A stretch of DNA of 64,000 bases from Dehalococcoidia bacterium (GTDB lineage Bacteria; Chloroflexota; Dehalococcoidia; GIF9; UBA5629), in contig JBEKIW010000003.1 of the NCBI GenBank assembly GCA_050011565.1, positions 28,137 through 92,136 of the forward strand, given 5' to 3'. The notes below the pieces were generated by a model. The model had not been told where the DNA came from and searched no databases. It worked only from the letters and a program-made list of their open reading frames with translations. Positions 7,555 to 63,183 of this stretch are shown here, piece by piece. Both the position numbers and the translations under genes were made by a program. Position 1 is the stretch's first letter; each line of letters opens with the position of its first letter.

Positions 7555-7767
7555 TCAGTCGTTGTGATTTTGCATCCTGACTCTTCTGCCGGCCGCCGCC
7601 GCCAGTGGCGCCACCGCTATCCACAGCGTGATGGTAATCAGCATAGACGTGGGATAGTCAATTTTGTTAAGGCCCAGCTTGGGTGCAATAACGCCCCAGA
7701 GCAACATAAAAAACAGTGAACTCAGAAAGAAGCCGGGGATAGCCGCCAATATGCTTATGAAGCCCAT
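7555..7767 (-). CDS. small 2-TM membrane protein, paralogue of 8377..8610
   Basis: 70 aa with an AAGGAGG SD. ILAAIPGFFLSSLFFMLLWGVIAPK...TITLWIAVAPLAAAA is shared with the paralogue. Confidence 0.7.
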   Translation of the reverse strand: MGFISILAAIPGFFLSSLFFMLLWGVIAPKLGLNKIDYPTSMLITITLWIAVAPLAAAAGRRVRMQNHND

Positions 7768-7829
7768 GTCAGTCCTCCTTAGCCATATCTATCGACTTCG
7801 GCTAGATAAGCATTATACGTATAACGAAC

Positions 7830-8339
7830 TTATTCTTCCAGTATAGCCTTGATATCCCTGGTGGCGCCGGCCATCACCTCGCGTATGCGCTTCATTTTGT
7901 CGGGCTCTATGCTCCGTGCCCGCTGCTTCATCAATCGCCCCAGCTCCCTGAAGTCGCCCATCATGTCCATAATTATGCCCATATTCTCCGGGTTCCAGTG
8001 GTGCTTCATGTGGTTCCTGACTTCTGCGGCCTGGTCCTCCCGCTCCAATAGGAACTTGCTGCCCTCTTTGGTTATGGTATAGACCTTCTTGCCGTCACGT
8101 TCTACGGAGCTGGCATAGCCCATTTCCTCGAGCATCTGCAGCGTGGGATAGACCACGCCCGGGCTGGGCGTGTAAAAGCCGTGCGAGCTTTCCTCGAGGG
8201 CACGGATGATTTCGTACCCGTAACGCGGCTTCTCTTTCAGCAGGTCGAGTATCACATATTTCAAGTTCCCCTTGTGAAAGGGACTGCCATGACCAAACCC
8301 GTGGAAATGTTCAGCTCCCCAGGCTCTACCTCTAAACAT
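7830..8339 (-). CDS. PadR-family transcriptional regulator
   Basis: Winged-helix motif YVILDLL..PRYGYEI...TPSPGVVYPTLQMLEEMGY. ATG 8339 has an AAGGAGG SD 8 nt upstream. The ORF-track GTG at 8369 is probably not used. Confidence 0.85.
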   Translation of the reverse strand: MFRGRAWGAEHFHGFGHGSPFHKGNLKYVILDLLKEKPRYGYEIIRALEESSHGFYTPSPGVVYPTLQMLEEMGYASSVERDGKKVYTITKEGSKFLLEREDQAAEVRNHMKHHWNPENMGIIMDMMGDFRELGRLMKQRARSIEPDKMKRIREVMAGATRDIKAILEE

Positions 8340-8376
8340 ATCTATTACCTCCTTTAAACTCAAGTGCACCCACTAT

Positions 8377-8610
8377 TTAATCTTTCGATTGGAAATGTCT
8401 GCTATGCCAGTGCCACATTCTGCCAACCCTAGCTGCCGCGGCCGCCAGAGGTGCTACCGCTATCCACAGCGTGATGGTCATCAGCATGGCCATGGGATAG
8501 TCAATGCCCTGCCATCCCATCTTAGGAGCAATAACGCCCCACAGCAGCATGAAGAACAACGAACTCAGAAAGAAACCCGGAATTGCCGCCAGAATTCTAA
8601 AGTAACCCAT
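8377..8610 (-). CDS. small 2-TM membrane protein, paralogue of 7555..7767
   Basis: 77 aa with an AAGGAGG SD. By eye about 80% nt identity to 7555..7767. Confidence 0.7.
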   Translation of the reverse strand: MGYFRILAAIPGFFLSSLFFMLLWGVIAPKMGWQGIDYPMAMLMTITLWIAVAPLAAAAARVGRMWHWHSRHFQSKD

Positions 8611-8661
8611 TTCAGCCCTCCTTTTATTTTGTTTTATTGTGACATATCTAGTACTATCACG

Positions 8662-8677
8662 ATATATCTAGATATAT
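8662..8677. promoter_or_regulatory. perfect 16-bp palindrome; candidate operator of the PadR operon
   Basis: ATATATCTAGATATAT lies about 50 nt upstream of the first gene of the 2TM-PadR-2TM unit, in an AT-rich promoter region. Confidence 0.35.
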
Positions 8678-8831
8678 TATAGAGTGCCTTAGCCGCCTTG
8701 TCAAGAGGTTTTTGGTTGAATTTTTAAATTATTTTTCGCGGCGATTATCTTTGTAATCTGAAACAATCAATGTAATCAATTTTTCATTTTTACTTGTCAT
8801 TTTGATTTTTGCTTTTTAACCTTTGATTTTA

Positions 8832-8965
8832 ACCCCGCTCATTCTGAGCTTGTCGAAGAATCTCTTTATTCTCTCTCCCCTGATGGAGGAAGGGTGGGCA
8901 GGCATCCAGCGAGGATTTACTCCCGCTGGGATATGGGGAAGGAGATAGTCAGAGTGAGGGGGAAA
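8832..8965. repeat. composite intergenic repeat: family C module (8832-8865) followed by a family A element (8866-8965)
   Basis: The core ggcaggcatccagcgaggatttactcccgctgggata is identical to the reverse complement of 25544-25580. Confidence 0.75.
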
Positions 8966-8970
8966 CCATC

Positions 8971-8999
8971 TTGACACCATGCCAGCGCTGTCATAATAT
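8971..8999 (+). promoter_or_regulatory. candidate promoter of the MBL hydrolase gene
   Basis: TTGACA at 8971-8976, with TAATAT after a 17-nt spacer (or CATAAT after 15 nt). Confidence 0.35.
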
Positions 9000-9034
9000 A
9001 GTCATATAGGTACTACTTGGAGGGGGTGGTTCAA

Positions 9035-9715
9035 ATGGCACAACAAAATTCAATGGTAATCCAGATTTCCCTGGGCTGGGCTAATGCCTTTGTCATTCGG
9101 GGCAAGCGCCCGGTGCTGGTCGACACCGGCTATCCCGGCAGCGCTCCCGCCATTATCGACAAGCTCACCCAGAACGGCGTCGACCCCGGCTGGCTCTCCC
9201 TCGTCCTCATCACCCACGGTCATTCCGACCACTTCGGCAGCGCCGCCGAGATTAAGAAGCAGACCGGCGCGCCTGTTGCCGTTCACAAGCTCGATGCCGG
9301 AGCCTTAAAAACAGGTCGAGACCCTTCGCTTAAGCCGACCGGCTTCATCGGCAGGATGTTCTTGCCCCTGCTGGAACGCCGGGGTCCGGCCACAGCGCCG
9401 CCGCTGAAACCCGATATCATCATCGAAGGCGAGCTGGACCTCAGCAAATTCGGCGTTGACGGCAAGGTAATTCACACGCCGGGCCACACTCCCGGCTCCC
9501 TATCGGTCATTTTACCTAACGGCGAGTTCATCGTCGGCGACCTGATTATGCGCGGCATGCTTCGCTTCTGGCAGCCGAACTACCCCTTGTTCGCCGATAA
9601 CATGGAACAGCTAAACAAAAGCCTCAAGCTGATACTTCGCAAAAAACCGACAAAAATCTACTGTACCCACGGCGGCCCCTTCAGCCCCAAAGCCGTCCTG
9701 CGGAAGTTTTCCTAA
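9035..9715 (+). CDS. MBL-fold metallo-hydrolase
   Basis: ITHGHSDHFG motif, with HTPGHTPGS and a C-terminal THGGPF. ATG 9035 is preceded by GGAGGGGG. Confidence 0.85.
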   Translation: MAQQNSMVIQISLGWANAFVIRGKRPVLVDTGYPGSAPAIIDKLTQNGVDPGWLSLVLITHGHSDHFGSAAEIKKQTGAPVAVHKLDAGALKTGRDPSLKPTGFIGRMFLPLLERRGPATAPPLKPDIIIEGELDLSKFGVDGKVIHTPGHTPGSLSVILPNGEFIVGDLIMRGMLRFWQPNYPLFADNMEQLNKSLKLILRKKPTKIYCTHGGPFSPKAVLRKFS

Positions 9716-10128
9716 GCAATGCTGCCTGACATCTACTGTGCTTTGAACATTTCGCTAAATTGTTGTCCTGGCCTTCTATAAGAGGAGCGACTCGCTGGCA
9801 AGGCACAGGCAAGCCAAAAAACTAAGAGGCTTGCCCTTCAGGGATTATGTTCTAACACGACCATTGACACATGCAAAAACATGGCGCATACTAACACTAG
9901 CGATGTTTCTACATGATTTATTAGGGACTCGCAGATGGCTTTGCTTTTTATTTTCCATCGCTACTATACCACTCCTATACCAGGTTTTACATTGACCGGA
10001 TATCACACCTGGAAAAGTCTGGGCGTTGCACTTATTTTAGATGGAATAATCCAAGAAACTGTGGGAAAGGGAATTCCGCCGGTATAACAGGAAATTTCTG
10101 CAATTCATTCTTATTTGGAGGTTGAGTA

Positions 10129-11346
10129 ATGAGATTATCAGATTTTCAATGGGTCCGCAGCAGAAATAGCGTTTTCGGATTGTGTCTATACCTGGTACTG
10201 CTTGGCCTCATAATCGTTGGTGCAGCTGAATCGATAATGCCGAATGACGTCTATTCTGCCGAATCCGCTATGGCCGGGAATAAACCGGTCATCCAAGTGT
10301 TCAAGGCTGAACCCATGGAACTGGATTCCCCCGCTTCGGCCGCCGTATATACCTTCAAGGTGAAGCTCGCCACGAATGTACAGATAAGTGAGGCGGGCAC
10401 TAACATTAAAAACATCAGTAACCCTTCCGGCGCCACCCTTCAAGGGACTGCCAACGGGCTGCCGGCCTCCTCAATACCGACGGATGGCAGCGGTAAGTTT
10501 GTCTGCACCATCGTGGCCAGCAACGAATACGGCACCAATACGGCAGCGCTAGAACTATCTATTGCCGCCAATCTTATACCGGCTGGACAATCAGGGTCGA
10601 CGGATAACCAGACCAAGCCCCGTACACCTAATTGGTTACTTCAGTTTTCCACGCCAAGTACTTCAACTCCGTCGACTGGGTCTAAGACTGGTTCTGAACC
10701 TGTGTTTTTCACATGCCCCAGCAGCTGCGAAGCCTGCCTGAAACCTGAGGACGCAGCCAGCCGTGGGTACACCCAGAGATGCTCCGACCAGCCCTGCTAT
10801 TACTCCCCTGATAACCAGCAAAAGTGGTATTGCTACAGCGAGCCGGAAGGCTGGTGCTGCGCCAATGAAAAAGTCAGCCAGACCACCAAACGTGAATGCA
10901 CCCAGATGGGAGGCTCCTACTGGTCCACCAACCAGAACGAGGCACTACAAGCCTGCCAGCCGGTAGGCTGGTGCTGCAGGGACGGTAATCTATACCAGGC
11001 CACCAAGGATCAGTGTGCCCAGATGGGAGGCTCCTACTGGTCCACCAACCAGAACGAGGCACTACAAGCCTGCCAGCCGGTAGGCTGGTGCTGCAGGGAC
11101 GGCAATCTATATCAGTCCACCCAGGCTCAGTGTACCCAGATGGGAGGCTCCTACTGGTCCACCAACCAGGCCCAGGTCGTGGCAAGCTGCCGTCAGGCGG
11201 CGACGTGCTGGTGCTGCGCGTCCGGCAAGGTCTTTCAGACCACCCAGGCTCAGTGCACCCAATCCGGAGGGGCCTGTTATTCCACCCAATCCCAGGCGGA
11301 CGCAGCCTGCCGTCAGACACAAATACGCACCCCCACCTTAAAGTGA
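10129..11346 (+). CDS. secreted or membrane-anchored cysteine-rich repeat protein (four 39-aa GWCC repeats)
   Basis: N-terminal hydrophobic anchor, beta-rich region, Ser/Thr/Pro linker, then Cys-rich repeats. GGAGG SD. Confidence 0.75.
   Translation: MRLSDFQWVRSRNSVFGLCLYLVLLGLIIVGAAESIMPNDVYSAESAMAGNKPVIQVFKAEPMELDSPASAAVYTFKVKLATNVQISEAGTNIKNISNPSGATLQGTANGLPASSIPTDGSGKFVCTIVASNEYGTNTAALELSIAANLIPAGQSGSTDNQTKPRTPNWLLQFSTPSTSTPSTGSKTGSEPVFFTCPSSCEACLKPEDAASRGYTQRCSDQPCYYSPDNQQKWYCYSEPEGWCCANEKVSQTTKRECTQMGGSYWSTNQNEALQACQPVGWCCRDGNLYQATKDQCAQMGGSYWSTNQNEALQACQPVGWCCRDGNLYQSTQAQCTQMGGSYWSTNQAQVVASCRQAATCWCCASGKVFQTTQAQCTQSGGACYSTQSQADAACRQTQIRTPTLK
10849..11320 (+). repeat. in-frame 117-bp tandem repeat, about 4 units, inside the CDS
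   Basis: cagatgggaggctcctactggtccaccaaccag recurs at 10903, 11020 and 11137 (period 117). Units 1-2 are near-identical at DNA level, and unit 4 is diverged. Confidence 0.85.
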
Positions 11347-11399
11347 CGGTTTCTATTTAGCAGGCCCGGGAAAGTTGGAATAAATATGGAGGTAGTTAA

Positions 11400-13082
11400 A
11401 TGAGGATATCGAACTTCGGAAAGTATCGTTGGGTAGCGGTCTTTTTCAGGTTATGCCTGGTTGCCGTAGTTGCCCTGTCACTGGTTATGGGAGGCATGGC
11501 ACTGAAGGTCCAGCCTGTACACGCTGCTACCGTTATACCTCTTTTTATAACTGCAACATTCCCGGCATGCCAGTCCTGGTCACAGCAACTTACCGTTACA
11601 CCAGCTTGTACTCCATCATTCATTTTCTTTTGGCTGGTGGGGACATTGCCGGGATTTGCAAACCTAAATCCAATTACCGGGGAACTCACATGTTGCCCTC
11701 AACCCACGGATGTTGGCGTCTATAACTTTGACATTATATGCACCGAGATGTATTGGCCCAGTGCGTGTTGGCCTCCCATTCACACGACTATTCCTGTCAG
11801 CCTCACTGTCACACCACCTCTCCCCACTACCCCCCTGACTATCAACCCAACGTTTTATCCGGTAGCCTGGGAGGGCCTACCGTTCTCCATGACGCTGAGC
11901 GCCACCGGTTGCTCAGGAGCATATAGCTGGGGCGCCTTGGGATTACCTGCCGGGCTTTCCGTGACAGACAACGTCCTCGGCATCATCTCCGGCACGCCCG
12001 GCCCGGGCACTTGCGGCACTTATACCGTAACAGTTACTTGTACTGATACACTTATGTGCCCTACAGCAGCATGCTGCCCACCCGTCAGCCGTCCCTTCAT
12101 CTTTATCGTTGATTGTTGGGCTAACTACCTTCCCATCTTTTACTACACTACCGCTTGCGATTTCACGGTCGAAATCGGCTCCGGTCTCACGCAGGGTCAG
12201 ACAAAGGTGTTGGTCGATGGCGCAAATAAGGCCACCCTGGTAGGAGGCCAATCTGAAACCTTTACCTCAGTGCCGTGCGAAAGCCATCTGGTGATGGTAG
12301 ATCAAGCGGTACAGGTCCCGAACTCCAATATGAAGTTCACAGTCATAGGTTCAAATACCAAGACGGTGTCCGATGTAGACAACCATGCCTATTTCGATTA
12401 TGCGCAGGAGGTAAATATCACCACGGCCAGCGACCCGTCCGGAGCGGCACAGCCGCCGGGCACCGGCTATTATGCCATAGGCAGCAATTTCAGCAGTACC
12501 GCGCCGGGCACCATTGAAACCGATATCCAGAACGGTAAAAAGTTGGTCTTCCGGGAATGGAGGCTGCCCGACGGCACCACGCGCCCCACCAGGGACCTGA
12601 TATTCCCCGTCAACCAGGCAGGGACCGTCACCGCCGCATACGATACTTTTTATCAACTGCGACTGACCTCGGATTACCCGGCCATAGACGAGCGCTCCTT
12701 TGAACCCGCAGGCAGCACCGCCACCTGGAACCTGTCGCTGCACGCAGTCCCCTTGCTGGGCTTCTGGGGTTTCCTGGGTGGAGTACAAAGCCCGCTGAAC
12801 GCCAGCGGCAGCCAGCTTATTACCGGACCCACCACCGTAGAAATCCAATGGGGGCCCAACTACACCATGCCCATTGTAGCCATAATAATTGCATTGCTGG
12901 TCATAGCCGGCCTGATCGTTCTCATATACCGCCTCCGGTCAAGGCCTGCCGCCAAAACCGAGGTAAAGGAAGCTACACCTAAGGCTAAAAAAACAGCGGC
13001 TGAAAACTTCTGCCCTAAATGCGGCAACCCTGTCGACAAGGATGCAGACTATTGCAAAAAGTGCGGAAAGAAACTTAAATAG
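11400..13082 (+). CDS. Cys-rich surface protein with putative Ig-like domains, a C-terminal TM helix and a cytoplasmic zinc ribbon
   Basis: Signal peptide ending VHA-A. Motifs LPAGLSV..GIISGTPG..GTYTVTVT (putative Ig type). TM helix IVAIIIALLVIAGLIVLIY followed by CPKCGNPV..x..CKKCGKKL. Confidence 0.75.
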   Translation: MRISNFGKYRWVAVFFRLCLVAVVALSLVMGGMALKVQPVHAATVIPLFITATFPACQSWSQQLTVTPACTPSFIFFWLVGTLPGFANLNPITGELTCCPQPTDVGVYNFDIICTEMYWPSACWPPIHTTIPVSLTVTPPLPTTPLTINPTFYPVAWEGLPFSMTLSATGCSGAYSWGALGLPAGLSVTDNVLGIISGTPGPGTCGTYTVTVTCTDTLMCPTAACCPPVSRPFIFIVDCWANYLPIFYYTTACDFTVEIGSGLTQGQTKVLVDGANKATLVGGQSETFTSVPCESHLVMVDQAVQVPNSNMKFTVIGSNTKTVSDVDNHAYFDYAQEVNITTASDPSGAAQPPGTGYYAIGSNFSSTAPGTIETDIQNGKKLVFREWRLPDGTTRPTRDLIFPVNQAGTVTAAYDTFYQLRLTSDYPAIDERSFEPAGSTATWNLSLHAVPLLGFWGFLGGVQSPLNASGSQLITGPTTVEIQWGPNYTMPIVAIIIALLVIAGLIVLIYRLRSRPAAKTEVKEATPKAKKTAAENFCPKCGNPVDKDADYCKKCGKKLK

Positions 13083-13126
13083 GGCGACAATGATGACATT
13101 CTTTATCCAAGGAGGTTAAATAGAAG

Positions 13127-13417
13127 ATGAATGTACCTGCTATGGACTATATCGGCTGTGGTTTTACCTGGCTTTTTGTGCTGCTCATCCTAGGTGGATA
13201 TTTCTATATCCTGAGCAAGACAGGCAAAAAATGGGTTTTCATGCTTATATTCGCTGCAGCCTGGTTCGTTATGGGCATATCATACATATTTCTCATCGCT
13301 GGTGTAGCTGCGGGTGCATGGTCTATCACGCTCATTAGAACAATCGGATATGTGTTGTTTCTATCAATGATATTGACAGCAATCGCGGAACTGGTAAAGT
13401 TGGGGGGAAAAGAATAA
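13127..13417 (+). CDS. small 3-TM membrane protein
   Basis: 96 aa with an AGGAGG SD. Third gene of the cassette, 44 nt after the previous stop. Confidence 0.6.
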   Translation: MNVPAMDYIGCGFTWLFVLLILGGYFYILSKTGKKWVFMLIFAAAWFVMGISYIFLIAGVAAGAWSITLIRTIGYVLFLSMILTAIAELVKLGGKE

Positions 13418-13427
13418 ATTAGCACGT

Positions 13428-13682
13428 GTGTTGAGTCCGCATAACGCCGGGACATACCCAGGCTTCCTATCGGTGATTCTGCCCGACGGTGAATTTATCA
13501 GCGGCGACCTTATTATGAAGGGGATGGTTCGCTTCTGGCAGCCGAACTACCCGCTTTTTGCCGATAACATGGAACAGCTAAACAAAAGCATCAAGTTGAT
13601 ACTGCGCAAAAAGCCGTCAAAAATCTACTGCACCCACGGCGGCCCCTTCGACCCCAAAGCCGTCCTGCGCAGGTTCTCCTAA
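13428..13682 (+). pseudogene. 3' fragment of an MBL-fold hydrolase gene (duplicate of 9476-9715)
   Basis: Encodes ..LSVILPDGEFISGDLIMKGMVRFWQPNYPLFADNMEQLNKSIKLILRKKPSKIYCTHGGPFDPKAVLRRFS. This aligns with the last 75 residues or so of the intact gene. The similarity continues about 55 nt past both stop codons. Confidence 0.8.
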
Positions 13683-13831
13683 GCAGTGCTTCCTGACATC
13701 CAACGTGCATTGAACATTTCGCCCTTTTGTTGCCTTAGAGGTAAGATATCAAGCCCTCCTGCACCCAAATGGCTGCCCTGATGGGTTTCAAGGATTGACG
13801 CTAGCCAGACTCCGGAATCATCTGCCCTTAT

Positions 13832-14488
13832 CTATTTTAATAACCGTAGCTTCAGAGCAAGCCCTCTATCTTCGATTCCCATTTCTGAAAAGCTTATTTG
13901 CGACGACGATATTATTTTCTGAAATTCCTGCAACCTCACAGACGAGTGAAGCCTTACAAAATACAGGACGAGAAAGGATAGGAACCAGCCGTACCTATCT
14001 TTTAGCTGCATTCTCGCCTCCCTTGTAGTGTCTTGTCTTAGCTCGTAAATCCATGCTTCACCACCAATCTTAAGAACGCGATGTATTTCTTTCAAGCATT
14101 CTCTGGGATTCGCCCAGTGATGAAAACTGAGTGTGCTTACGATTAGGTCAAAATATCCATCCCCATAAGGAATATGCTCTGCACTGCCATACTCAAATTG
14201 AACACGTCCGGATAGTTCAGCATCTTTAGCGTTCTTGCTAGCTATCATCACCATGGCTGAGGAAATATCGATGGCTTTAATCTCAACATTCTGAGACCTT
14301 CGAGCCACCTCAATCGGAACATAGCCAGGCCCTGTTCCTATGTCTAATAGTTTCCCCGACGATACCTTTGAGATAATCTCTCCTGTAACCTCTCGGTAGA
14401 AGTCTTGCATAATTGGGCTTCTAGCCACAATTGTTGAATAGACTTTTGCCCCAGGCTTAGGAATACCCTCGATCTTTAAAAGCTTCAT
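13832..14488 (-). CDS. class I SAM-dependent methyltransferase
   Basis: LLDIGTGPGYV motif I and FDLIVSTLSFHHW. Confidence 0.8.
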   Translation of the reverse strand: MKLLKIEGIPKPGAKVYSTIVARSPIMQDFYREVTGEIISKVSSGKLLDIGTGPGYVPIEVARRSQNVEIKAIDISSAMVMIASKNAKDAELSGRVQFEYGSAEHIPYGDGYFDLIVSTLSFHHWANPRECLKEIHRVLKIGGEAWIYELRQDTTREARMQLKDRYGWFLSFLVLYFVRLHSSVRLQEFQKIISSSQISFSEMGIEDRGLALKLRLLK

Positions 14489-14505
14489 AAATTAACCCAA
14501 GGACT

Positions 14506-14817
14506 TCAATGGGGGACCAGAAACTCACCAAGGCAAAAAACCAGAATATCAAAGCCAATAAAGATAGCTAAAAAAACAAGGATAGAGCGCTCCTTGCTTT
14601 TTATGATGCCGATAAGTCCGGTAACAAAGGCAGCTACACCACAGGTCCCCGCGAGAAACATCGGGACTGTAAGCAGAAGGTTACTGAAGAACGTTTCGCC
14701 ACCCCGCTGTCCGGAAACAACCAGGATGATAAACAACACCAAAAACAGAATGAAAGCCGCAATCAGGCCGACTGACCATTTACCCAAAGAGGTTTTTGGT
14801 AAAACATCTATCCGCAC
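14506..14817 (-). CDS. small membrane protein (3 TM)
   Basis: Hydrophobic 103-aa ORF, 17 nt upstream of the methyltransferase gene on the same strand. Confidence 0.5.
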   Translation of the reverse strand: MRIDVLPKTSLGKWSVGLIAAFILFLVLFIILVVSGQRGGETFFSNLLLTVPMFLAGTCGVAAFVTGLIGIIKSKERSILVFLAIFIGFDILVFCLGEFLVPH

Positions 14818-15000
14818 AATACTATCCTAGAACGTAATTTGATTGAAGTCAATATGTCAGTCAGAATGGGCCGGCATACTTGAGTCCCTGACAGGTTCAT
14901 TCAACTCCTGCATGCATTTGTTTCTTACTTGTCAGAAGCGCGACAGCTCGTTGTTTCGCTTGAGGCGAGCATGACTTGAATAACCCGGAGGGGGTCGCGA

Positions 15001-16563
15001 CTAAGGTCTCCCGGCTTTCTCCACGGCAAGTCCGCAGTTGTTTATCTTTAGCTTTCCGTCATAGAACAGGGCAGCGACGCGGCTCCCCACGATGTGCAAG
15101 TCAGCAAGTGGGTCGCCGGCGACGATAGCCAGGTCGGCCACTTTGCCCGTCCGGATGGAGCCAAACCCCTCTTCCAGCCCCATTGCCTTGGCGCTGCCTA
15201 TGGTGGCCAGGCGCAGGGCATCGGCGCCGGTGAACCGTCTGGCACTTCTATCCCTGTTCAACGTGAGGTCAAACATACCCATCTCGTACTTGATTGCGGC
15301 CGGTGTGCACGGCGGGATGCCGCCGTCGTTGCCACATCCCATCCGGGCAGATTTTTCAAAGAGCAGCCTGAAATTGTGCGTACCGTTGATACCGGCGGTA
15401 GAATAATATCGGTATAAAGCACTGTTATCCATGATGCCAAGCGTCTTCATAAGCCCCCGGGAAAGCCTCTGGTGGCTACCGAGTACGCTACCCCTCAGTT
15501 CGGGAACGAAGAACTCCTCGGCCAGGGCAGCTATGGTTTTGTCCCTATACTCCATTATTTTGAGTACTTCCGGATGGTCGTAAGAGGGATGCCCCTTCAC
15601 GCCCCACACCACGTCATAGGCCACCGACAAGGTCGGCTCCGAGATGCATTTGGCAGCGATGAAAGCCTCTACATCGGCCTCACTGAGGTCGGCATCGCGG
15701 GGAATATGTGCCAGTGACGTTACGCCGGCTTTCACTCCTCGCCGAAATGACGCTACGCTCACCTGATGCATGGTGCTTTTCAGCCCTCTTCGCCGTGCCT
15801 GGTCAGCCAGCGCTTCGAGCTGCCTGGCGGTCATCACAGTATGTGTGGGCTTGAAGTTGACCAGGTTCTCGATTTGTTCCCCGATCTTGATGTACTCTGC
15901 ACCTCGTTCATCGATGGCACGGTCCACCGCATCCCTGACTTGTCGTGCGCCAGCATCCAAAGGAAATACCAGCACCCCGCTTTCGCTCTTCTGATACTCA
16001 ACCACCGGAATGCCCAGAGCCATACAAAAAAATCGCCAGGTAAGGGTAAGTCTAGGCGAAAAATAGTTATTCGGAGGAGTGACCACTACTGCCTGATAGA
16101 TACGCGGGCCCGCTATCTCTCCTCGGGATATCCTTTCTTTCCAAGCGCGTAAGATGCGCAGGTCATCGATCTTACAATCCCTGATGTTGGTAATGCCGTG
16201 TGCCAGGCATTCGGCCATGTTCTTGGCAAGCTGTTGTTGGTGATACTTGTTGCCCAATCTGACATCCTTAATTTCAGGGCTGACTGTGGTTGTGGTATAA
16301 GATGCATGGCAGTGTGTATTAAACATGCCGGGGAAAGCTGCCTTGCCCTGAAGGTCTATGGTGAAGTCGGGTTTAATGCCAGTGGGTTCGCCCGGCATTC
16401 CGGGCATGGCCTTTACCTTTTTCCCCTGAATGATAACTCTGGTTTCCGGTGCGAAATAGCGCCCGTTGATGGCATCGACAAACCTGCCATTCTTCAGCTC
16501 TACCAGGGCATCATCCCCAGGCTCATAATTGTCCACGAAATTGGTCTCAGCATAACCTTGCAT
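15001..16563 (-). CDS. amidohydrolase-family protein
   Basis: FNTHCHAS metal-binding HxH motif and C-terminal GSIRTGKVADLAIV. Confidence 0.8.
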   Translation of the reverse strand: MQGYAETNFVDNYEPGDDALVELKNGRFVDAINGRYFAPETRVIIQGKKVKAMPGMPGEPTGIKPDFTIDLQGKAAFPGMFNTHCHASYTTTTVSPEIKDVRLGNKYHQQQLAKNMAECLAHGITNIRDCKIDDLRILRAWKERISRGEIAGPRIYQAVVVTPPNNYFSPRLTLTWRFFCMALGIPVVEYQKSESGVLVFPLDAGARQVRDAVDRAIDERGAEYIKIGEQIENLVNFKPTHTVMTARQLEALADQARRRGLKSTMHQVSVASFRRGVKAGVTSLAHIPRDADLSEADVEAFIAAKCISEPTLSVAYDVVWGVKGHPSYDHPEVLKIMEYRDKTIAALAEEFFVPELRGSVLGSHQRLSRGLMKTLGIMDNSALYRYYSTAGINGTHNFRLLFEKSARMGCGNDGGIPPCTPAAIKYEMGMFDLTLNRDRSARRFTGADALRLATIGSAKAMGLEEGFGSIRTGKVADLAIVAGDPLADLHIVGSRVAALFYDGKLKINNCGLAVEKAGRP

Positions 16564-16734
16564 TTCTACCTCCCGTCCGAATGGCGTTGCCGATATTGTA
16601 CAATAGCACCAGCCTTGTCACCAATGTGCCGGCCTTGCCTAAGAAGGGCAACTAGCTTCCTTTGGTTGTCTGCGAGCCAGGACTATGCTGCCGATAACGC
16701 CCTACTTGTCAGGACATGGTTGCCCGTTTGCCTC

Positions 16735-17046
16735 TCAACTTCCTAGTTCTTTGCCTGTTATGAGATAGTAAATCAGGCTTGCAATCCCACTCAAGATTGG
16801 TAAACTCAGGACTGAAGCCAGTGTAATTAAAAGTGCTAACTTGACTCTGCTTAGTTTTTTCCTGCGGATTAACCCTATAATAAAAATCACCAGGCCAATC
16901 AGGATGATAGAAAAGCCAATTATATCTGTATCTATATCATAGTATATATACAGAGGGAAACTTAGTATAAAGACGATTACGCCAATACCCATTATAAAAA
17001 AGGACGCTGTTATAAGTTTGCCAAACCTGTTTATCATTTTCCTCAT
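16735..17046 (-). CDS. small membrane protein (3 TM)
   Basis: AT-rich hydrophobic 103-aa ORF bracketed by the 16655/17118 direct repeats. Confidence 0.5.
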   Translation of the reverse strand: MRKMINRFGKLITASFFIMGIGVIVFILSFPLYIYYDIDTDIIGFSIILIGLVIFIIGLIRRKKLSRVKLALLITLASVLSLPILSGIASLIYYLITGKELGS

Positions 17047-17101
17047 TGTTTCCCTCTTTTATGCTCAGTGTTGGTGCTATTACAGAAGACTGCTTGTCAA
17101 A

Positions 17102-17488
17102 TTAAGTAGGACGAATCGCTTCCTTTGGTTGTCTGCGAGCCAGGACTATACTGCCGATTATTCCTGTCAGGAAAGCCAGCAGAATAACGTATAAGATAAG
17201 GTTAGCCATCGTTTCAGGAACGAGCTCAAGAAATACAAAACCGATAGGGATAGCAATAGGAGCAGCTCCTGTCATTATCAAGAAGGTCCTGAGCAAACCT
17301 GCCACCTTTCCTTTCAAAGTCAAAACTAGCAACGCTATCCCGAGGAAGAAGAACAAAGCAAAAACCAGAAGGGGTAAAAAGGCCATATAAGTAAGAGTCC
17401 ATTGTCCCACGGCTGGAATGAAATTCACTGCCAGGACTAAAAAATCTCCGACCAGTGCCCAGAATACCGGCCAAATTGCTTTCTTCAT
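17102..17488 (-). CDS. membrane protein (4 TM)
   Basis: Hydrophobic 128-aa ORF. Its 3' end is duplicated at 16655-16714. Confidence 0.55.
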   Translation of the reverse strand: MKKAIWPVFWALVGDFLVLAVNFIPAVGQWTLTYMAFLPLLVFALFFFLGIALLVLTLKGKVAGLLRTFLIMTGAAPIAIPIGFVFLELVPETMANLILYVILLAFLTGIIGSIVLARRQPKEAIRPT

Positions 17489-17810
17489 CTTCTCACCTAC
17501 TTTTTCACCGATTTCACGTGTTCGTACTTGAGTTTAGTCCCTATCCTGAAACACTGTCAATGCCCTAAAAACGGGATGAACCCACTGTGCCTCTTATCGG
17601 CGACAACATCCAATTTGAAGTATCCCTGTGAAGTTGACCCTACTAAACAAAAGCCGACCGCCTACTCCTGGGGCTATTGTGCTTGTGGACTCACTCGAGA
17701 AGTGATATAAGTACTGGGCGTAGGTCAGCACATTCTGGCTCAGACTTGTCATTTGGCCTAGACGAAATAGGACCCAAATCAACAAAATGTGATGGTTGGG
17801 AGAGGGAGTA

Positions 17811-20267
17811 ATGGAAAAACAATACTATGACATGGCGATTCTTGTATTACCTGCTTTAGGTGCACTTTTACTAGCCTGGGCAAGTATCCCTAGGGGATGG
17901 AATAGGAAAACATGCGTGGCGCTAGTTGGGGCGCAACTGATTCTTGTTGCTTTTATGATGGCCTATTACAAAACATATATTTCTTTACATGAGAATCTTA
18001 AAACCGGATTTTGGTTTCTTGTGGGCCTTTATATAGTGGCAGTCGTCATTATTATCGTCCAGCCCTGGAAAATAATAATGAAAAGAAAAACTGCAAAAAT
18101 TTCGAGTTCCATAGATGAAGCTCCAAATGCTATCTCTCCTACGCTGTTAGTAGATGAACCAATATTGCTAGAAGAACAAGACAGACTTAATAGGAACAAA
18201 TTTGTGGAGCAATTCGCCCAAACACTAGTAGGACATCGTGGCAATTCTTGTCTAATTGCCGCCTTGCATGGTCCATGGGGCAGCGGTAAATCTTCATTGC
18301 TCAATCTTATAGAGGATCAGTTGAACAACTCATCAGCAACAAATGACTACATTGTCATCAGGTTCAATCCATGGAATATCTCCAGCCTTGACCAGCTAAT
18401 AACAATGTTTTTCCATGAACTAAAAGTAGCAGTCCAAGGCAAGCAGCAATTCAATGTGGATGGTGGCAAGACAGCCAAGCTGCTAGACATATTTAGTGGC
18501 ATATTGACGGTCAGCACGCTTTCACCTGTCGGTAGTCAATACTTTGCAGTAGGCGCAGAGGCGGTTAAAAAGGCGGGCAGAGTTATCAAGGATAATAGAA
18601 CCAAGTCACTTGTTGAAATAAAAAAACAACTCGATAAGGAGCTATCCAAAGCAGCAAAACGTATATTTGTTCTGATAGACGACATTGATCGCCTAGACGA
18701 AGAAGCCGCTAGATTGCTTTTCAGAATGATTCGGCTAAATGCTGATTTTAAGAATACTACTTATTTACTGGCATTTGACTTAGATGTAGTGACAGACCTA
18801 ATCGCGAAAGACCAGCCAAAACACGGCAAGGAATACCTTGAGAAGATAATACAACTTCCTGTACATATTCCGAAAATTGACGATGCGGTTCTTCAAGCTC
18901 TCCTAGTAGAAGAACTCGATGTTTTCGTCAACAAATATGACGGCGATAAATTTGATAAAACATATCAAATAAGATGGCAAGAATTACTTGTAGAAGGGAG
19001 ATTTTTCAAATTATTCAGGACAATAAGAGATATCGTCAGATATAGTAACGGCCTCAACTTGAACTACGCACTAATATCTGATGAAGTCAACATGGTGGAT
19101 TTTATGGCACTAGAAGGCATTCGCATATTTGCGCCGCAGTCTTATGATCAAATCCGTCGTAATAAAGCAATCATCACAAGGACTAGCACTACTGGAATCC
19201 TACAGCCGAAAGAAGACATAGCGACAACAAAAACAATACTAGAAAAGATATTTAATCCAGCGTCGTCAGATAACACTGAAAGAGGCAAGATAGTTGAGGA
19301 TGTCTGTAAGGTGCTATTCCCACAATTAGGAAGAATATACGCAAATTTTGATTTCAGTAATTCTCAGCAGGAGTGGAGACAACAAAAGCGAATCTGCTCA
19401 GAAGAAGTATTCGAGAGATATTTCATGCTTGGCATTCCAAAGGGAGAAATCTCTGAAGAAGAAATGAAGACAACATTGGCATTAGGCAATGACCATCTGA
19501 AATTTGCCGAAGCCCTAAATGAGTTGTTTGAGAGGAAGCTAGGGAAGCGCTTCCTGGAGCGCTTCGAGGACTATATCGGCGAAGTGCAAGAGGAAAATAT
19601 CCTGGAAACCATACTTGGTCTATTTGAGATTGAAGAGAGGATAGTATCCGAACCCAGAGGTATGCTGCAAGCTGGTGCTGACTACCAAGCTGCTAGATTA
19701 GCATACCTACTACTCAAGAGGATTCGAGAGAAGACTCAACGAAAGAATACAATCATAGATGCAATCAACAAAACATCCAAAATATTCTCACCTGTCCATT
19801 TTGTATCTCTCATTAGTCCTGATAGCACAGAGGATGCTCCAAGGAATGAAGCACGGGTAGAACTCGAATTGTCGCAAGAAGACTCTTTCGAGTTACATAA
19901 TTTATGTGTAACAAAGATTAAGACAGCTGCTGTGTCAGGTGAGCTATCGAAATCACCACATTTAGGCATGATAATGTATAGATGGCATGACTGGGGAAAT
20001 GCTGATGAAGTTAAAGAATATGCTAGAAAACTTGTTGAAACAGATGAAGGAGTAATAGATTTTCTTGTTGGAGTAACAATTGAAGTATTGTCCTCTAGTA
20101 CGGGACGCCGAGCCGAGATACAGCAGAAGGATATTTCCGCCTTCATAGATATTGAACTCATTAAGACAAGAGTCGCACAGATCAAAGAAACTGAGTGGGA
20201 GAAGTTGAACAATATTCAACAAGAAGCAGTTGATGCTTTTCTAAGAAGCATGTCACCAGATGAATGA
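17811..20267 (+). CDS. KAP-family P-loop NTPase with three N-terminal TM helices
   Basis: Walker A GPWGSGKSSLLN (the KAP-type GxWGxGKS pattern) and Walker B IFVLIDDIDRLD. ATG 17811 follows GGGAGAGGGAG. Lower GC than the surrounding sequence. Confidence 0.8.
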   Translation: MEKQYYDMAILVLPALGALLLAWASIPRGWNRKTCVALVGAQLILVAFMMAYYKTYISLHENLKTGFWFLVGLYIVAVVIIIVQPWKIIMKRKTAKISSSIDEAPNAISPTLLVDEPILLEEQDRLNRNKFVEQFAQTLVGHRGNSCLIAALHGPWGSGKSSLLNLIEDQLNNSSATNDYIVIRFNPWNISSLDQLITMFFHELKVAVQGKQQFNVDGGKTAKLLDIFSGILTVSTLSPVGSQYFAVGAEAVKKAGRVIKDNRTKSLVEIKKQLDKELSKAAKRIFVLIDDIDRLDEEAARLLFRMIRLNADFKNTTYLLAFDLDVVTDLIAKDQPKHGKEYLEKIIQLPVHIPKIDDAVLQALLVEELDVFVNKYDGDKFDKTYQIRWQELLVEGRFFKLFRTIRDIVRYSNGLNLNYALISDEVNMVDFMALEGIRIFAPQSYDQIRRNKAIITRTSTTGILQPKEDIATTKTILEKIFNPASSDNTERGKIVEDVCKVLFPQLGRIYANFDFSNSQQEWRQQKRICSEEVFERYFMLGIPKGEISEEEMKTTLALGNDHLKFAEALNELFERKLGKRFLERFEDYIGEVQEENILETILGLFEIEERIVSEPRGMLQAGADYQAARLAYLLLKRIREKTQRKNTIIDAINKTSKIFSPVHFVSLISPDSTEDAPRNEARVELELSQEDSFELHNLCVTKIKTAAVSGELSKSPHLGMIMYRWHDWGNADEVKEYARKLVETDEGVIDFLVGVTIEVLSSSTGRRAEIQQKDISAFIDIELIKTRVAQIKETEWEKLNNIQQEAVDAFLRSMSPDE

Positions 20268-20671
20268 TTTCGATTAACGAATTTTCCCTACCATAATGAC
20301 CGATTAAACGAACACGATGCTACGCAGCTAATGCTGCAGCAAGTTCTTTGGCCGGAGCTTTGCACGCCGGCACCGGTGAGCCTCTTGGCATTGTGGACCA
20401 GCCGGAGGATTTGGGGGCTGATGTTACCTTTGAAAAGCCGTTCTAGCCCAGCCTAGGTGTAGACGGGATGGCCCTGGGGTATGCTCAGGACTTTCTCGTC
20501 CTGGGCGATGACTAAGTGTTCCCCAGCACCAACTGAACACTGTACTACCACTATTAAAGTGACAATGAAATCAACTTATTATTGCACATTCCGTCATTTT
20601 GTTTAGTATCGCATTTCATTCCGTCGTTTTTCGTTTGCCCCGTACGAGCCAGACTGCTATACTAACCAATC

Positions 20672-20911: not shown

Positions 20912-20949
20912 TTTAACCAAATATTGAGTATACTATCCTATGTTTCCTG

Positions 20950-23781: not shown

Positions 23782-23791
23782 AACCGACGTT

Positions 23792-25264: not shown

Positions 25265-25265
25265 A

Positions 25266-60789: not shown

Positions 60790-60835
60790 TTCAAAAAAAC
60801 GCGCTGAATAGACCGTCTTGGGTTACAGTTGCGGC

Positions 60836-61324
60836 CTATCGGTTCAACAACCATATAGACGAATTCAGAACGACTGCAAAAGTTACCCACAGCAGATAAG
60901 GCCAGAGCAGCACACTGGAAGCTAAAGATATCCTGTAAAACTTCAGAGCTGTGAATAATATAGCCACCCACAGGACCACGATTACAATGAATCCGTACAG
61001 AGGCGACTCGAGGCCGAAAAAAACCACCGACCATAAGGCGTTTAGAACCAGCTGTATCAGAAATACAATTAGTGCTATTCTGACCTGTCGATTCTCCAAT
61101 CCCTTACGCCACACCAGAAATGCAGCTATGCCCATCAGTATATAAAGAAGTGTCCACACCGGGGCAAAGAGCCAGTTCGGCGGACTAAAAAACGGTTTTT
61201 GCAGCGTCGCATACCAAGTCGGAATGGCGCTTCGTGTAAATACGGAGCCGATGGCGCCGGCAGCCAGGCAGGCGACAACGCTAACCACCAGCTTCGGGAT
61301 ATCCCTGGTATTCATATTTCGCAT
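60836..61324 (-). CDS. tspO: TspO/MBR-family tryptophan-rich sensory protein
   Basis: Five TM helices. Motifs PPNWLFAPVWTLLY and WPYLLWVTFA. Confidence 0.85.
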   Translation of the reverse strand: MRNMNTRDIPKLVVSVVACLAAGAIGSVFTRSAIPTWYATLQKPFFSPPNWLFAPVWTLLYILMGIAAFLVWRKGLENRQVRIALIVFLIQLVLNALWSVVFFGLESPLYGFIVIVVLWVAILFTALKFYRISLASSVLLWPYLLWVTFAVVLNSSIWLLNR

Positions 61325-61360
61325 TGTACCAGATGGGGCAATTATTTTACTAACTGAGTG

Positions 61361-61417
61361 GCGAGATTCTTCGCTTCGCTCAGGATAACATCGGCGAAGA
61401 GCTCAAAATAACATGTC
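61361..61417. repeat. family C repeat module
   Basis: gcgagattcttcgcttcgctcaggataacatcggcgaagagctcaaaataacatgtc, compared with 31604-31658. Confidence 0.65.
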
Positions 61418-61573
61418 TCTCCAGATAGATTATGCTAATAATGAGTAGAAAAAAGATCTTAAAGACCATGCCGGCAAATCTACCACCGCAGTAATTTGAC
61501 GCTAAAAAAAGCTACATACAGGCGAAGTAGATTCTATGAGGCAATACGTGTATGCTTGAGAACCCCATTTGTC

Positions 61574-62110
61574 TTAAATCCATACAGCAAATGGCGGCTT
61601 GTTAATAACCTTGAAATCTCTCTGTGCGGTGATAGTTTTGCATTCAACTGCAACCTCAACAAATACATGATACAAACCCAATCCAAGAATCTCGTCTTGC
61701 TCAAAAACCCGAACTAGCCCTTCTGCATCTTCAACTGTTGCAATTCCAAATTGGGATGGGAATATTGATGGTGGTAAGCTTATTCTCTGGGCGGGAGCTA
61801 TGCCTGCATGGGATATTAAGGATGGTACTATTTCCGCAACAGCATTGCTTCCGTCATTTCCGTTTTTAATAGAAAAACGAACTACTATGTCGTCTGCCAC
61901 CATTCTGCGAATACCTACTATTTGTAACAAGCGACTTCTAATTTGTGGGTTATATAATTCGCCTTGTAATACTTTTCCGCCCTTCACTTCCCGAACACCA
62001 AAATGGATTATCAACTTCGGTTTTCCCAAAAACACTTGAAACACAGTGGGGAGAGCCATTAGTGCTACAACCAAAGCAAGGATGCTGATAATAAAGGCAG
62101 CCAGAGCCAT
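61574..62110 (-). CDS. hypothetical N-terminally membrane-anchored protein
   Basis: 178 aa, one N-terminal TM helix followed by a beta-rich domain. Lower GC. Bracketed by the 61459/62197 direct repeats. Confidence 0.55.
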   Translation of the reverse strand: MALAAFIISILALVVALMALPTVFQVFLGKPKLIIHFGVREVKGGKVLQGELYNPQIRSRLLQIVGIRRMVADDIVVRFSIKNGNDGSNAVAEIVPSLISHAGIAPAQRISLPPSIFPSQFGIATVEDAEGLVRVFEQDEILGLGLYHVFVEVAVECKTITAQRDFKVINKPPFAVWI

Positions 62111-62205
62111 GCCTTAATTCTACCACATTGGAGTTTCGCAGCTAATTTAAACCTTAATCTGTCCATAGCGATTATGCTAGAATTAGGAAACAGGTTTTAA
62201 AGACC

Positions 62206-63183
62206 ATGCCGGCAAATCTACCACCGCAGTACTACGACGCTGAAAAACGCTATCGGACGGCCAAAACTCCCGAGGATAAAATTGAGGCGCTAGAGACCAT
62301 GCTGGCTATCATGCCCAGGCACAAGGGCACCGATCATCTGTATGGCGACCTGAGACGAAGAATCGCCAAGCTCACCGAAGAGGCGGAACGAAAAGCCACC
62401 ACCAGCCGGACCAGCTTCTACATCAGAAAAGAAGGCGCCGGCCAGGTAGCCCTGGTGGGGCTGCCAAATACCGGCAAATCACAACTGCTGGCCGCTGTCA
62501 CCGACGCCTTCCCCGAAATAGGAGATTATCCCTTCACTACCAAGTCTCCCAATATAGGTATGATGAAATTCGAAAACATTCAAATTCAATTGATAGACAC
62601 TCCTCCGGTTACAGGCCGCGATTCCCGCGTCTGGCTGAATAACGTCGCCAGAAACGCCGACTTAATAGCCATTATCGCAGATTTAAACAAAAATCCGGTG
62701 GAACAGGTTGAGACAACTCTTCAGGAGTTGGATAGTGTAGGCATCGTGCCGGCAGTAAATATGTCTCCAGAAAGCTTGATAGGCAAGCGACCCAGAAAAA
62801 TGCTGATTGTGGGCAACAAAAGCGACTTAGACACTTCGGATGCCGGCTGGCTCCGATTAAAAACGCGTTACGGTTCCCAGTTCCCTATGACAGCTGTATC
62901 AGCCACCAGCGGCAATAATCTGCAAGACCTCAAGATAAGCATTTTTCAAGCGCTGGAAATTATCAGAGTCCACACCAAGAGCCCGGGGCAGAAACCGGAT
63001 TTGACCGACCCTATAATCCTCAAAACGGGCAGCACGGTAAAAAATGCCGCCGAAGACGTTCACAAGGATTTCAAAGCCAAACTGAAGTACGCCGTCGTGT
63101 GGGGCTCAGGAAAATTCGATGGGCAGAGGGTCAGTCAAGACCATTTGCTGAAGGATAACGACATAATCGAGCTACATATCTAG
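62206..63183 (+). CDS. Obg/DRG-like GTP-binding protein with a C-terminal TGS domain
   Basis: G1 GLPNTGKS, G3 DTPP and G4 NKSD. TGS-like C-terminus (..[19 protein letters not shown]). Confidence 0.8.

Follow-up and report, generated by a model that had tools for sequence, protein, structure and literature searches.

The 64,000-nucleotide stretch of Dehalococcoidia DNA analyzed here (the window) contains five places, between positions 7555 and 62235, at which a gene or a small operon (the cargo) lies between two direct copies of a neighboring gene or gene end, one copy usually being intact and the other a truncated stub. The neighboring genes are gatB, the gene for a ribosome-associated GTPase, a gene for a small membrane protein (m128), a gene for a metallo-β-lactamase (MBL)-fold hydrolase, and two paralogous genes for proteins with two transmembrane segments (2TMa and 2TMb). 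The explanation that we favor, with a little better than an even chance of being right, is that the repeats are the scars, and later the substrates, of a recombination-driven turnover of cassettes at a few hotspots that uses the DNA of diverged relatives. Directly supporting this explanation are the reality of the repeats, the empty sites or alternative cargo in relatives, divergence between copies that is mostly synonymous, a mixed phylogeny of intact and stub copies, and the lack of an integrase and of a common att core. The five cases are not one uniform recent process. An earlier note on this DNA took all of them for insertions, which stands for the cargo beside gatB, the GTPase gene and m128, where relatives have empty sites or other cargo, and does not stand for the 2TM-PadR and MBL layouts, which are old and inherited. 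The window provides a further example of recombination scars of a known kind, and no new cassette system that dispenses with a recombinase.

In the favored explanation, donor DNA from a diverged relative with another local gene order would pair with a conserved gene end. The anchors would be the 3′ end of the MBL gene with its 40-nucleotide tail, the 3′ end of m128, and the promoter and first codons of gatB or of the GTPase gene. The other end of the donor would be joined without homology, a process called homology-facilitated illegitimate recombination (HFIR); alternatively, the same product would arise from a single crossover of a circularized fragment. The working gene would retain one copy of its end, and the other would be displaced as a stub beyond the new cargo. 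Only events that leave the flanking gene intact would survive, and for this reason the duplications would end exactly at the natural boundary of the gene. The stubs would persist, be overwritten by ordinary homologous recombination with the alleles of other lineages, and act as landing pads for further cassettes, so that arrays would result. From the comparisons below we infer the joining mechanism, the donor lineages and the direction of each event.

Direct repeats and the variable region

The repeat pairs were recovered by a repeat search, self-BLAST of the window and local alignments, and the genes were identified with Pfam. All five direct-repeat pairs of the earlier note were found and are real; since E-values reach 1e-85, chance is excluded. 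Two sets of coordinates had to be corrected, as the MBL repeat is 280 nucleotides long and not about 295, and those given for m128 were about 15 nucleotides off. The families confirmed were Lactamase_B, GatB_N (matched by the stub open reading frame (ORF) as well), Penicil_amidase, PadR and MMR_HSR1 with TGS. The geometry of intact gene end, cargo and displaced, diverged copy is equally real. The four stub/intact pairs are direct duplications of the entire homology patch on either side of the insert, and the homology stops abruptly at 20838, 61514, 16695 and 13444. Transposase target-site duplications, which are identical, 2-15 bp long and accompanied by terminal inverted repeats, were ruled out as an explanation, in agreement with the earlier note: the repeats are 56-280 nucleotides long and diverged (79-89% identical), with no local inverted repeats.

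Six local pairs in the window are direct and none is inverted. With identical criteria, 100 kb of E. coli K-12 yielded 0 pairs, and the loci of relatives (1.26 Mb in total; individual loci are labeled L### below) yielded about 3.6 direct and about 0.5 inverted pairs per 64 kb. Local direct repeats in these Dehalococcoidia loci are mostly whole paralogues (43 paralogue pairs in 1.26 Mb), and stub-like pairs number about 21, or about 1 per 64 kb, by a crude automatic count.

The gene order 3′ of gatB is kept across the class (SAM hydroxide adenosyltransferase, cysS, ispF, ispD, radA, clpC), and that 5′ of gatB is not. In L009 and L017, which are more distant relatives, homologues of the genes at window positions 2350-5044 (tmk, mnmA, rnhB and a yraN-like gene) abut gatB with a gap of 50-75 nucleotides. 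Because the yraN-like gene and gatB are adjacent in these loci, the DNA that separates them in the window is defined as a variable region:

5045..23791, no strand: variable region, 18.7 kb between the yraN-like gene (4685-5044) and gatB, with four of the five cases inside

The left part of this region is kept in L090, L092 and L093, with genes for a cation-diffusion facilitator, msrA, msrB, 2TMa, PadR, 2TMb, MBL, the cargo genes c405 and c560, and the MBL stub, in that order. The right part differs cassette by cassette among close relatives (L110, L124). Window positions 25-60 kb hold core genes (rpoB, rpoC, ruvB and others), where the sole local repeat pair consists of intergenic hairpin elements, and self-BLAST of the window found no stub-plus-intact pair in these 35 kb (gatB to rpoB and beyond). 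A genome-wide mechanism, which the earlier note had considered possible, is not supported, as four of five cases fall in one 18.7-kb flexible region and none in 35 kb of core genes.

The earlier statement that the inserts carry no recombinase was borne out. Among the Pfam matches of the large ORFs, no integrase or transposase was present inside any insert or anywhere in 7555-62235, the window's sole transposase ORF being at 393-1418, and none appeared among the Pfam hits in the arrays of L090-L092, L100, L110 and L124 or on L004. The cargo of the window may, as the earlier note stated for all but the PadR gene, encode secreted or membrane proteins; the equivalent cassettes of relatives include genes for catalase, phosphofructokinase, Fic, a methylase and an ATPase. 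A comparison of the junctions of the five cases revealed no common core beyond chance AT-rich 8-9-mers.

Insertions beside gatB, the GTPase gene and m128

An alternative that bears on all of these cases is segmental or tandem duplication within the genome, followed by partial deletion and decay. The stubs would then be remnants of local paralogues, the cargo would be ancestral, and no foreign DNA would be involved. We consider this unlikely. A tandem duplication would copy the cargo too, which was never seen. The features of the gatB case are as follows:

20591..20838, plus strand: gatB stub, consisting of the promoter region and 55 codons; 86% identical to 23709-23958; 79-aa ORF, GatB_N E 2.8e-18
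20950..23648, minus strand: cargo, a penicillin-acylase family gene (20950-23526) with about 110 nucleotides of its own upstream sequence; Pfam E 1.7e-233
23709..25264, plus strand: intact gatB (23792-25264) with promoter copy 23709-23791; Pfam and alignment
17811..20267, plus strand: gene for a KAP-family P-loop NTPase in a 40% GC stretch, the swapped-in neighbor of the gatB stub

The gatB gene is essential and normally single-copy, which argues against an origin of the stub by duplication within the genome. The two gatB ends are 92% identical in the coding part, 78% upstream and 86% overall. Between them the synonymous distance (dS) is 0.29 and the non-synonymous distance (dN) is 0.032, for a dN/dS of 0.11, and the corrected distance over the upstream 77 nucleotides (0.26) is approximately the same as dS. 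Four non-synonymous differences were seen, compared with about 17 expected under neutral decay in place (Poisson P = 1.7e-4), and the distances among the stub, the intact copy and the L110 allele are all about equal. For these reasons the two ends appear to be functional alleles of different lineages. As judged from these comparisons, the interpretation of an insertion with gene-end duplication and a foreign allele holds for gatB, and the foreign donors that the earlier note had suggested are upheld by the divergence of the two copies as functional alleles. Relative to L110 the gatB copies are mosaic, with few informative sites.

The neighborhood of gatB in relatives differs from locus to locus. 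L009, L017 and L110 represent sites empty of the acylase 5′ of gatB; L110, whose GatB is 96% identical, has a D12 methylase gene and an AAA_15 ATPase gene upstream of gatB and no stub. L117 shares the stub-acylase junction (95.6% identical), and the gene 5′ of its stub is not the KAP gene. The alternative cassettes at this site, all without mobility genes, are thus acylase with KAP, methylase with ATPase, and another gene in L117. Orthologues of the acylase (86-91%) occur in other, partly conserved contexts, and their homology to the window ends at 20949-20957 and 23638-23648. In the five orthologue contexts examined, the acylase gene was not seen adjoining an intact gatB; L117 has the stub junction of the window.

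Three further observations concern this neighborhood. At the place equivalent to the KAP NTPase (17796-20267), L110 has genes for Fic, a D12 adenine methylase and an AAA_15/AbiEii-like ATPase (6691-11194), and therefore the region 5′ of gatB looks like a small defense-gene hotspot. In L112, whose acylase protein is 86% identical, a 93-nucleotide copy of the HpaB 3′ end (5323-5414 vs 9816-9908, 74%) lies downstream of an esterase gene, which leaves the esterase and acylase genes bracketed by direct copies of a gene end like those of the window. In L034, another Dehalococcoidia metagenome-assembled genome, a direct repeat just 5′ of gatB (1-102 vs 1415-1516, 95%) brackets about 1.3 kb; its left copy is cut at the contig end.

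The second case, that of the GTPase gene, lies outside the variable region:

61416..61514, plus strand: GTPase stub, consisting of the upstream region, the ribosome-binding site and about 16 codons, of which the eighth is followed by a premature stop; 82% identical to 62158-62252
61574..62110, minus strand: cargo c178, encoding an N-terminally anchored 178-aa protein without a Pfam match
62117..63183, plus strand: intact GTPase gene (62206-63183) with a second, different upstream type that is common to L115 (94%) and L113
61000..63000, no strand: diverged tract around the insertion, with about twice the flank divergence from L122

The two copies share a 35-nucleotide identical core at 61459-61493. 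The closest relative, L122 (flanks mostly 92-100% identical), has TspO, 208 nucleotides and the GTPase gene, with neither c178 nor the stub. L114 and L123 also lack the cargo, and L115 lacks both TspO and the cargo; L113 has an unrelated 161-aa gene (c161) at the c178 site. The TspO-GTPase site therefore carries c178, c161 or nothing, in each case without mobility genes. A single alignment joins L123 to window 61044-61514 (81%), and L114 aligned with 59952-61356 and 61359-61515. The window and these two loci are collinear over TspO, the intergenic region and the stub, which places the stub, with its upstream element, at the original position. The upstream type on the stub side is common to L114 and L123, and that on the intact side to L115 and L113; copies that match different relatives are difficult to reconcile with a local duplication. 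Mismatches to L122 amount to 12.6% in 62148-63100, compared with 5.9% and 6.7% in the flanks (Fisher P ~1e-11 and ~1e-8), and 61000-61374 is diverged too. Since the diverged tract lies on both sides of the cargo, the whole module of stub, cargo and gene has been exchanged by homologous recombination. The tract had been considered as an argument for a linear over a Campbell-type event; this was dropped, as the tract spans both cargo sides (61.0-63.0 kb). The GTPase case is probably an insertion with gene-end duplication and a foreign allele.

A small repeat beginning GAGATTCTTCGCTTCGCTCAGRATRACA occurs twice in the window, at 31606-31658 and 61363-61415, the latter copy being immediately 5′ of the GTPase stub. 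The same element is found at this position in L114 and L123, and a near copy is located elsewhere in L111.

The third case involves the 3′ end of m128:

16640..16695, minus strand: m128 3′-end stub, consisting of the stop codon and 18 codons; 89% identical to 17103-17158 with a 32-nucleotide identical core; 3′ flank 16623-16639
16735..17046, minus strand: cargo m103, encoding a 103-aa protein without a Pfam match
17102..17488, minus strand: intact m128 gene, with repeat copy 17103-17158

The alignment of L124 with the window (14499-16695, 93.7%) is unbroken from h103a across the amidohydrolase gene to the real end of m128, and the same is true of L100. Compared with these two loci, the window has an extra 407 nucleotides, which correspond to m103 and a second copy of the last 56 nucleotides of m128. 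In both, m128 follows directly after the flank with no stub, and m103 is absent; the stub and flank of the window are collinear with their real m128 end, which points to the ancestral position for this stub as well. As to which m128 end is resident there is no signal, since 50 of 56 positions agree between L124 and the stub and 51 of 56 between L124 and the intact end. L110 has m103, and two m128 copies there (87% over 471 nucleotides) bracket a Fic gene. An insertion with gene-end duplication and a foreign allele is the probable origin of the m128 arrangement. The clean empty sites for m103 (L124, L100) and for c178 (L122, L114, L115, L123) in close relatives argue against ancestral cargo, and the two full m128 copies of L110 are in line with a duplication.

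Old layouts, the 40-nucleotide motif and stub arrays

The duplication alternative describes one of the five cases exactly:

7555..8610, minus strand: 2TMa (7555-7767), PadR (7830-8369) and 2TMb (8377-8610); repeat 7592-7780 vs 8435-8623, 79%

L090, L092 and L093 keep both 2TM paralogues and PadR. Identity is 90-98% between each 2TM copy and its own orthologue, compared with 74-87% to the other copy. Because each copy is nearest to its own orthologue, 2TMa-PadR-2TMb is on this comparison an ordinary old paralogue pair outside the cassette process. Both copies are full-length and kept in relatives, which is not true of the gatB, GTPase and m128 stubs. Along with this conserved structure, the abundance of local direct repeats, mostly whole paralogues, in Dehalococcoidia loci and the presence of the MBL layout in diverged lineages are in favor of duplication within the genome. 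The features of the MBL layout are the following:

9035..9715, plus strand: intact MBL-fold hydrolase gene (Lactamase_B E 1.4e-29); its 3′ part, 9476-9715, is repeat copy I
9716..9755, plus strand: 40-nucleotide motif directly 3′ of the MBL stop codon, the common right end of every MBL 3′ copy
10129..13417, plus strand: cargo c405 (Cys-rich 39-aa repeats), c560 (He_PIG and zinc ribbon) and c96, by Pfam
13444..13722, plus strand: MBL 3′ stub, ORF 13428-13682 (84 aa), with a motif copy; 280 nucleotides, 85% identical to 9476-9755, E 2e-85
17643..17658, plus strand: tentative 16-nucleotide remnant of a further MBL 3′ fragment, CTACTAAACAAAAGCC, upstream of m128

Orthologues of the MBL protein are 226 aa long with 70-95% identity. 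The genes c405 and c560 come after MBL in L089-L097, L103-L105 and L124. The layout of MBL, c405, c560 and stub is present in L090, L091, L092, L101, L102, L104 and L106, and lineages whose MBL protein is only 82-88% identical share both it and the 2TM-PadR-2TM layout. The stubs of these seven loci begin at the equivalent of window position 9380 and form a conserved 132-aa ORF (P0101-P0118, the MBL stub ORFs of relatives); L124 and L110 have an orthologous MBL stub with the same c96 neighbor as the window. Since diverged lineages share the layout, it is not a recent private insertion; the structure is old and under constraint. L094 had been taken for a locus with cargo and no stub, in which the cargo would predate the duplication. 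This was withdrawn because L094 belongs to the L110 genome (100% over 1978 nucleotides), with the stub further downstream.

The MBL stub and intact gene of the window differ with a dN/dS of 0.14 (dS 0.58). The corresponding ratios are 0.06-0.21 within three other genomes, 0.10-0.34 for stub vs stub across lineages, and 0.05-0.23 for intact vs intact. In a neighbor-joining tree the intact and stub copies are intermixed and not reciprocally monophyletic, which is a further argument against simple local paralogues: the intact copy of the window is nearest to the stubs of L104 and L102, and the stub of L091 is 99.3% identical to the intact-type copy of L103. The MBL stub ORF may be functional, or the stubs may have been overwritten repeatedly by homologous recombination with functional alleles; both are possible. 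The gatB dN/dS, the two GTPase upstream types and the intermixed MBL tree all point to copies from different lineages.

Two side observations concern these genes. The MBL stub is an ORF in every lineage, and in several it is the 132-aa ORF, whose hydrophobic N-terminus, MARCPIFVLTSVLILIRGKTG, is new. The dN/dS of the stub is as low as the intact gene's, so that either it may be maintained as a gene or recombination may keep it intact. The c405 gene (10129-11346) contains four to five tandem 117-nucleotide units at 10838-11316 that encode the 39-aa Cys-rich repeats. The protein is fast-evolving and probably extracellular; lineages that are about 85% identical in MBL share only 50-70% identity in c405.

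Additional MBL 3′-end copies at more cassette boundaries fit the accretion that the earlier note had proposed. L124 has a second stub end with a motif copy (80 nucleotides); its two stub-type copies, 90% identical, bracket a methyltransferase gene and a catalase cassette, the latter not in the window. Three MBL 3′ fragments are found at cassette boundaries in L110. In L100, other cargo lies between MBL and a 136-nucleotide MBL fragment that adjoins m128. At the position collinear with the 16-nucleotide remnant of the window, L100 and L110 run on into 136-150 nucleotides of MBL 3′ sequence, and the assignment of the remnant is tentative as it is short. In total, displaced 3′ fragments of MBL number one stub and the 16-nucleotide remnant in the window, two in L124 and three in L110, and m128 has one stub.

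The arrays, together with the behavior of the motif, bring in a second alternative, that of site-specific integration. Either a tyrosine or serine recombinase whose gene lies elsewhere would be at work, or the inserts would be remnants of integrative elements whose integrase has been lost, with the gene ends as attB sites and a replacement end carried by each element. The 40-nucleotide motif occurs 15 times in the compared loci, always behind MBL copies, and at least six different sequences follow it within 0-10 nucleotides. The right ends of the MBL copies are all within about 15 nucleotides past the motif, and their left ends vary (9380, 9476, 9536, 9598). A shared right end with variable left ends is the arrangement of tandem tRNA/tmRNA islands, and the different neighbors after the motif, the fragment arrays at cassette boundaries and the identical cores of the GTPase (35 nucleotides) and m128 (32 nucleotides) repeats also agree with this alternative. 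We nevertheless regard it as quite unlikely. No integrase was found in the window inserts or in the arrays of L090-L092, L100, L110 or L124, the inserts are often single genes of 0.4-3 kb, and four genes would each need their own att site, with junctions that share no core. The exact breakpoints behind the motif are several nucleotides apart, and neither a tRNA nor a tmRNA gene is present in the window. We also rejected the idea of an attP site, on a phage or an integrative element, that would carry the MBL end, as no viral contig in IMG/VR carries the motif or the gene (0 matches).

The motif has two allelic forms, both present among intact and among stub copies and swapped between the window and the L090 clade. 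One speculative possibility, to which we assign little probability, is that the MBL 3′ end and its 40-nucleotide tail are a dedicated docking site for cassettes in this Dehalococcoidia clade. Cassettes bounded by copies of it would pass from genome to genome, as circles that enter by host homologous recombination or by way of an unrecognized recombinase acting in trans, giving integron-like arrays without an integron integrase. If so, the conserved stub ORF of 132 aa would be no scar but something that the system maintains, and the MBL tail would define a new cassette system; the present evidence favors known recombination processes instead.

Known recombination processes and other features of the window

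Although the earlier note knew of no described cassette system of this kind, HFIR, single-crossover duplications of 109-950 bp, orphan arrays at rhs and type VI secretion system (T6SS) loci, and minimal mobile elements are all on record (PMC3240628, PMC5361080, PMC1797815). HFIR has been reported in Streptococcus pneumoniae, Acinetobacter baylyi, Pseudomonas stutzeri and E. coli, following natural transformation or conjugation (PMC3240628). In this process, homology is used at one end of the foreign DNA and the other end is joined without it, no dedicated recombinase takes part, and a joint inside the homologous gene leaves the intact end, the cargo and the displaced end in the order seen here. 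In laboratory HFIR, the deletion in the recipient is usually about the size of the insert, and the joints have 3-10-bp microhomology (PMC3240628). The present cases differ in that no donors were identified against which the joints could be set.

Orphan 3′ fragments and immunity arrays at rhs, contact-dependent inhibition (CDI) and T6SS effector loci ('C-terminal displacement') have been attributed to HFIR (PMC5361080). These loci share with the window the order of intact gene, cargo and displaced 3′ fragments of earlier alleles, as well as the serial arrays and the alleles from different lineages. They consist of polymorphic toxins and immunity genes, whereas the cargo here is unrelated to such functions (among the products are an acylase, a catalase, a methyltransferase, a protein with Cys-rich repeats and one with Ig-like and zinc-ribbon domains). 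In the cases described here the anchors are genes for an MBL-fold hydrolase and a small membrane protein and, at gatB and the GTPase gene, the 5′ end together with the promoter. Minimal mobile elements of Neisseria are alternative cassettes of one to three genes without mobility genes that occupy the same site between conserved genes in different strains and are exchanged through homologous recombination in their flanks (Saunders and Snyder 2002, as used in PMC1797815). The TspO-GTPase site and the site 5′ of gatB behave in this way. Minimal mobile elements are not defined by gene-end duplications, however, and Neisseria is competent with uptake sequences, with nothing comparable known here.

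Integrase islands at gene 3′ ends, such as the accretion of ICESt1/CIME elements at fda in Streptococcus thermophilus and of phage 21/e14 at icd, share with the present cases the direct repeats of a gene 3′ end, the tandem accretion, a common right end and a variable repeat length. Integrase-mediated ssrA islands are known from Dehalococcoides, in the same bacterial class (PMC3146451). Such islands carry or depend on a site-specific recombinase and a fixed crossover core, and neither a recombinase nor a shared core was found here.

The earlier note had favored Campbell-type integration of circles. In its broadest form, this third alternative is a dedicated lineage-wide system in which repeat-flanked cassettes loop out as circles by homologous recombination and re-enter the genomes of relatives by a Campbell-type crossover at the same gene end, resulting in recombinase-free accretion throughout the genome. 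We consider it decidedly improbable. The identical cores of 32-35 nucleotides are approximately the size thought to be needed for RecA-type pairing, successive cassettes are bracketed by MBL-end copies, and the motif alleles have been swapped between intact and stub copies across lineages. A single crossover duplicates the whole patch directly, leaving one copy to the left and one to the right of the insert, and in E. coli duplications of 109-950 bp arise in this way, largely independently of RecBCD and RecFOR (PMC3240628). On the other side, patches of only 56-280 nucleotides with 82-89% identity make poor substrates, two of the five layouts are old and inherited, and the pattern is confined to flexible regions (none in window 25-60 kb), with crude stub-like pairs at about 1 per 64 kb in relatives. 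A Campbell-type event needs a circular intermediate and predicts reciprocal chimeras; the informative sites here are few and give no clear answer. The product is the same as that of a linear one-sided event, and no test applied favored the circle over the latter.

An assembly artefact, in which a chimeric join of co-occurring strains creates false duplications, would agree with copies that differ by 8-20%, similar to the divergence of co-occurring relatives, and was rejected as having a negligible probability because five data sets (JGI 3300018018, JGI 3300038451, ENA ERZ27250144, ENA ERZ27250059 and Logan SRR7028199; at least three assemblers) are 100% identical across every repeat and all junctions, and the junctions recur in diverged form in other lineages (stub-acylase in L117, 95.6%; c96-stub in L124 and L110).

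Several points weigh against cassette turnover by recombination as the explanation of the repeats. No donor arrangement was found (for example, acylase-gatB without a stub, or c178-GTPase), so that no comparison of HFIR microhomology could be made, and HFIR is rare in experiments. To our knowledge, neither natural competence nor another route of DNA entry has been described for these organisms. The conserved MBL stub ORF (132 aa in several lineages) may have been kept for a function and not be a scar. In addition, c405 and c560 come after MBL in all lineages seen except L100, and therefore the MBL cargo need not have come with the duplication. Finally, the clustering of breakpoints within about 15 nucleotides behind the MBL motif, at six or more junctions, would also fit a site-specific enzyme acting in trans; it is the most suggestive unexplained feature.

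If recombination-driven turnover is correct, gene turnover in these genomes would take place at a few hotspots, one to three genes each time, with conserved gene ends as recombination anchors. The displaced stubs would be a readable record of past events from which the history of flexible islands can be reconstructed using metagenomes. The hosts are uncultured Dehalococcoidia of peat and sediment, and how such genomes gain and swap genes is poorly known because the examined inserts and arrays carry no integrase or transposase. In practical terms, automatic annotation calls the stub ORFs as genes (an 84-aa 'MBL' and a 79-aa 'GatB').

With regard to the host lineage, the GatB of the nearest GTDB species representative is 84% identical, and the gatB relatives point to an uncultured Dehalococcoidia bacterium. 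Rfam matches on the window were limited to 5S rRNA and a NiCo riboswitch. The riboswitch (5140-5228) is located 5′ of the cation-diffusion-facilitator gene (5178-6239), and the 5S rRNA gene (34414-34530) is a lone one, with no 16S or 23S rRNA gene near. The transposase ORF at 393-1418 is of the IS6/IS240 family (DDE type) and lies in a 38% GC stretch (1-2188), about 3 kb to the left of the variable region; the ORFs 10-360 and 1415-2188 in the same stretch have no Pfam match.

A family of G/C-run hairpins is dispersed in both orientations between genes, at 5064-5109, 7504-7545, 8865-8963, 25497-25608, 26457-26568 and 28725-28853. Examples are TCCCCCTTAGAAAAAGGGGGATTAAGGGGGATTTT and TTCCCTCTCCCTTGACGGGAGAGGG, the latter being followed by runs of the heptamer GGGTGAG. 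Two direct copies of the element bracket cysS and a cysE-like gene (26578-28686), and most relatives lack the cysE-like gene. In L124, a 1.5-kb gene is inserted immediately beside the hairpin element 8865-8963.

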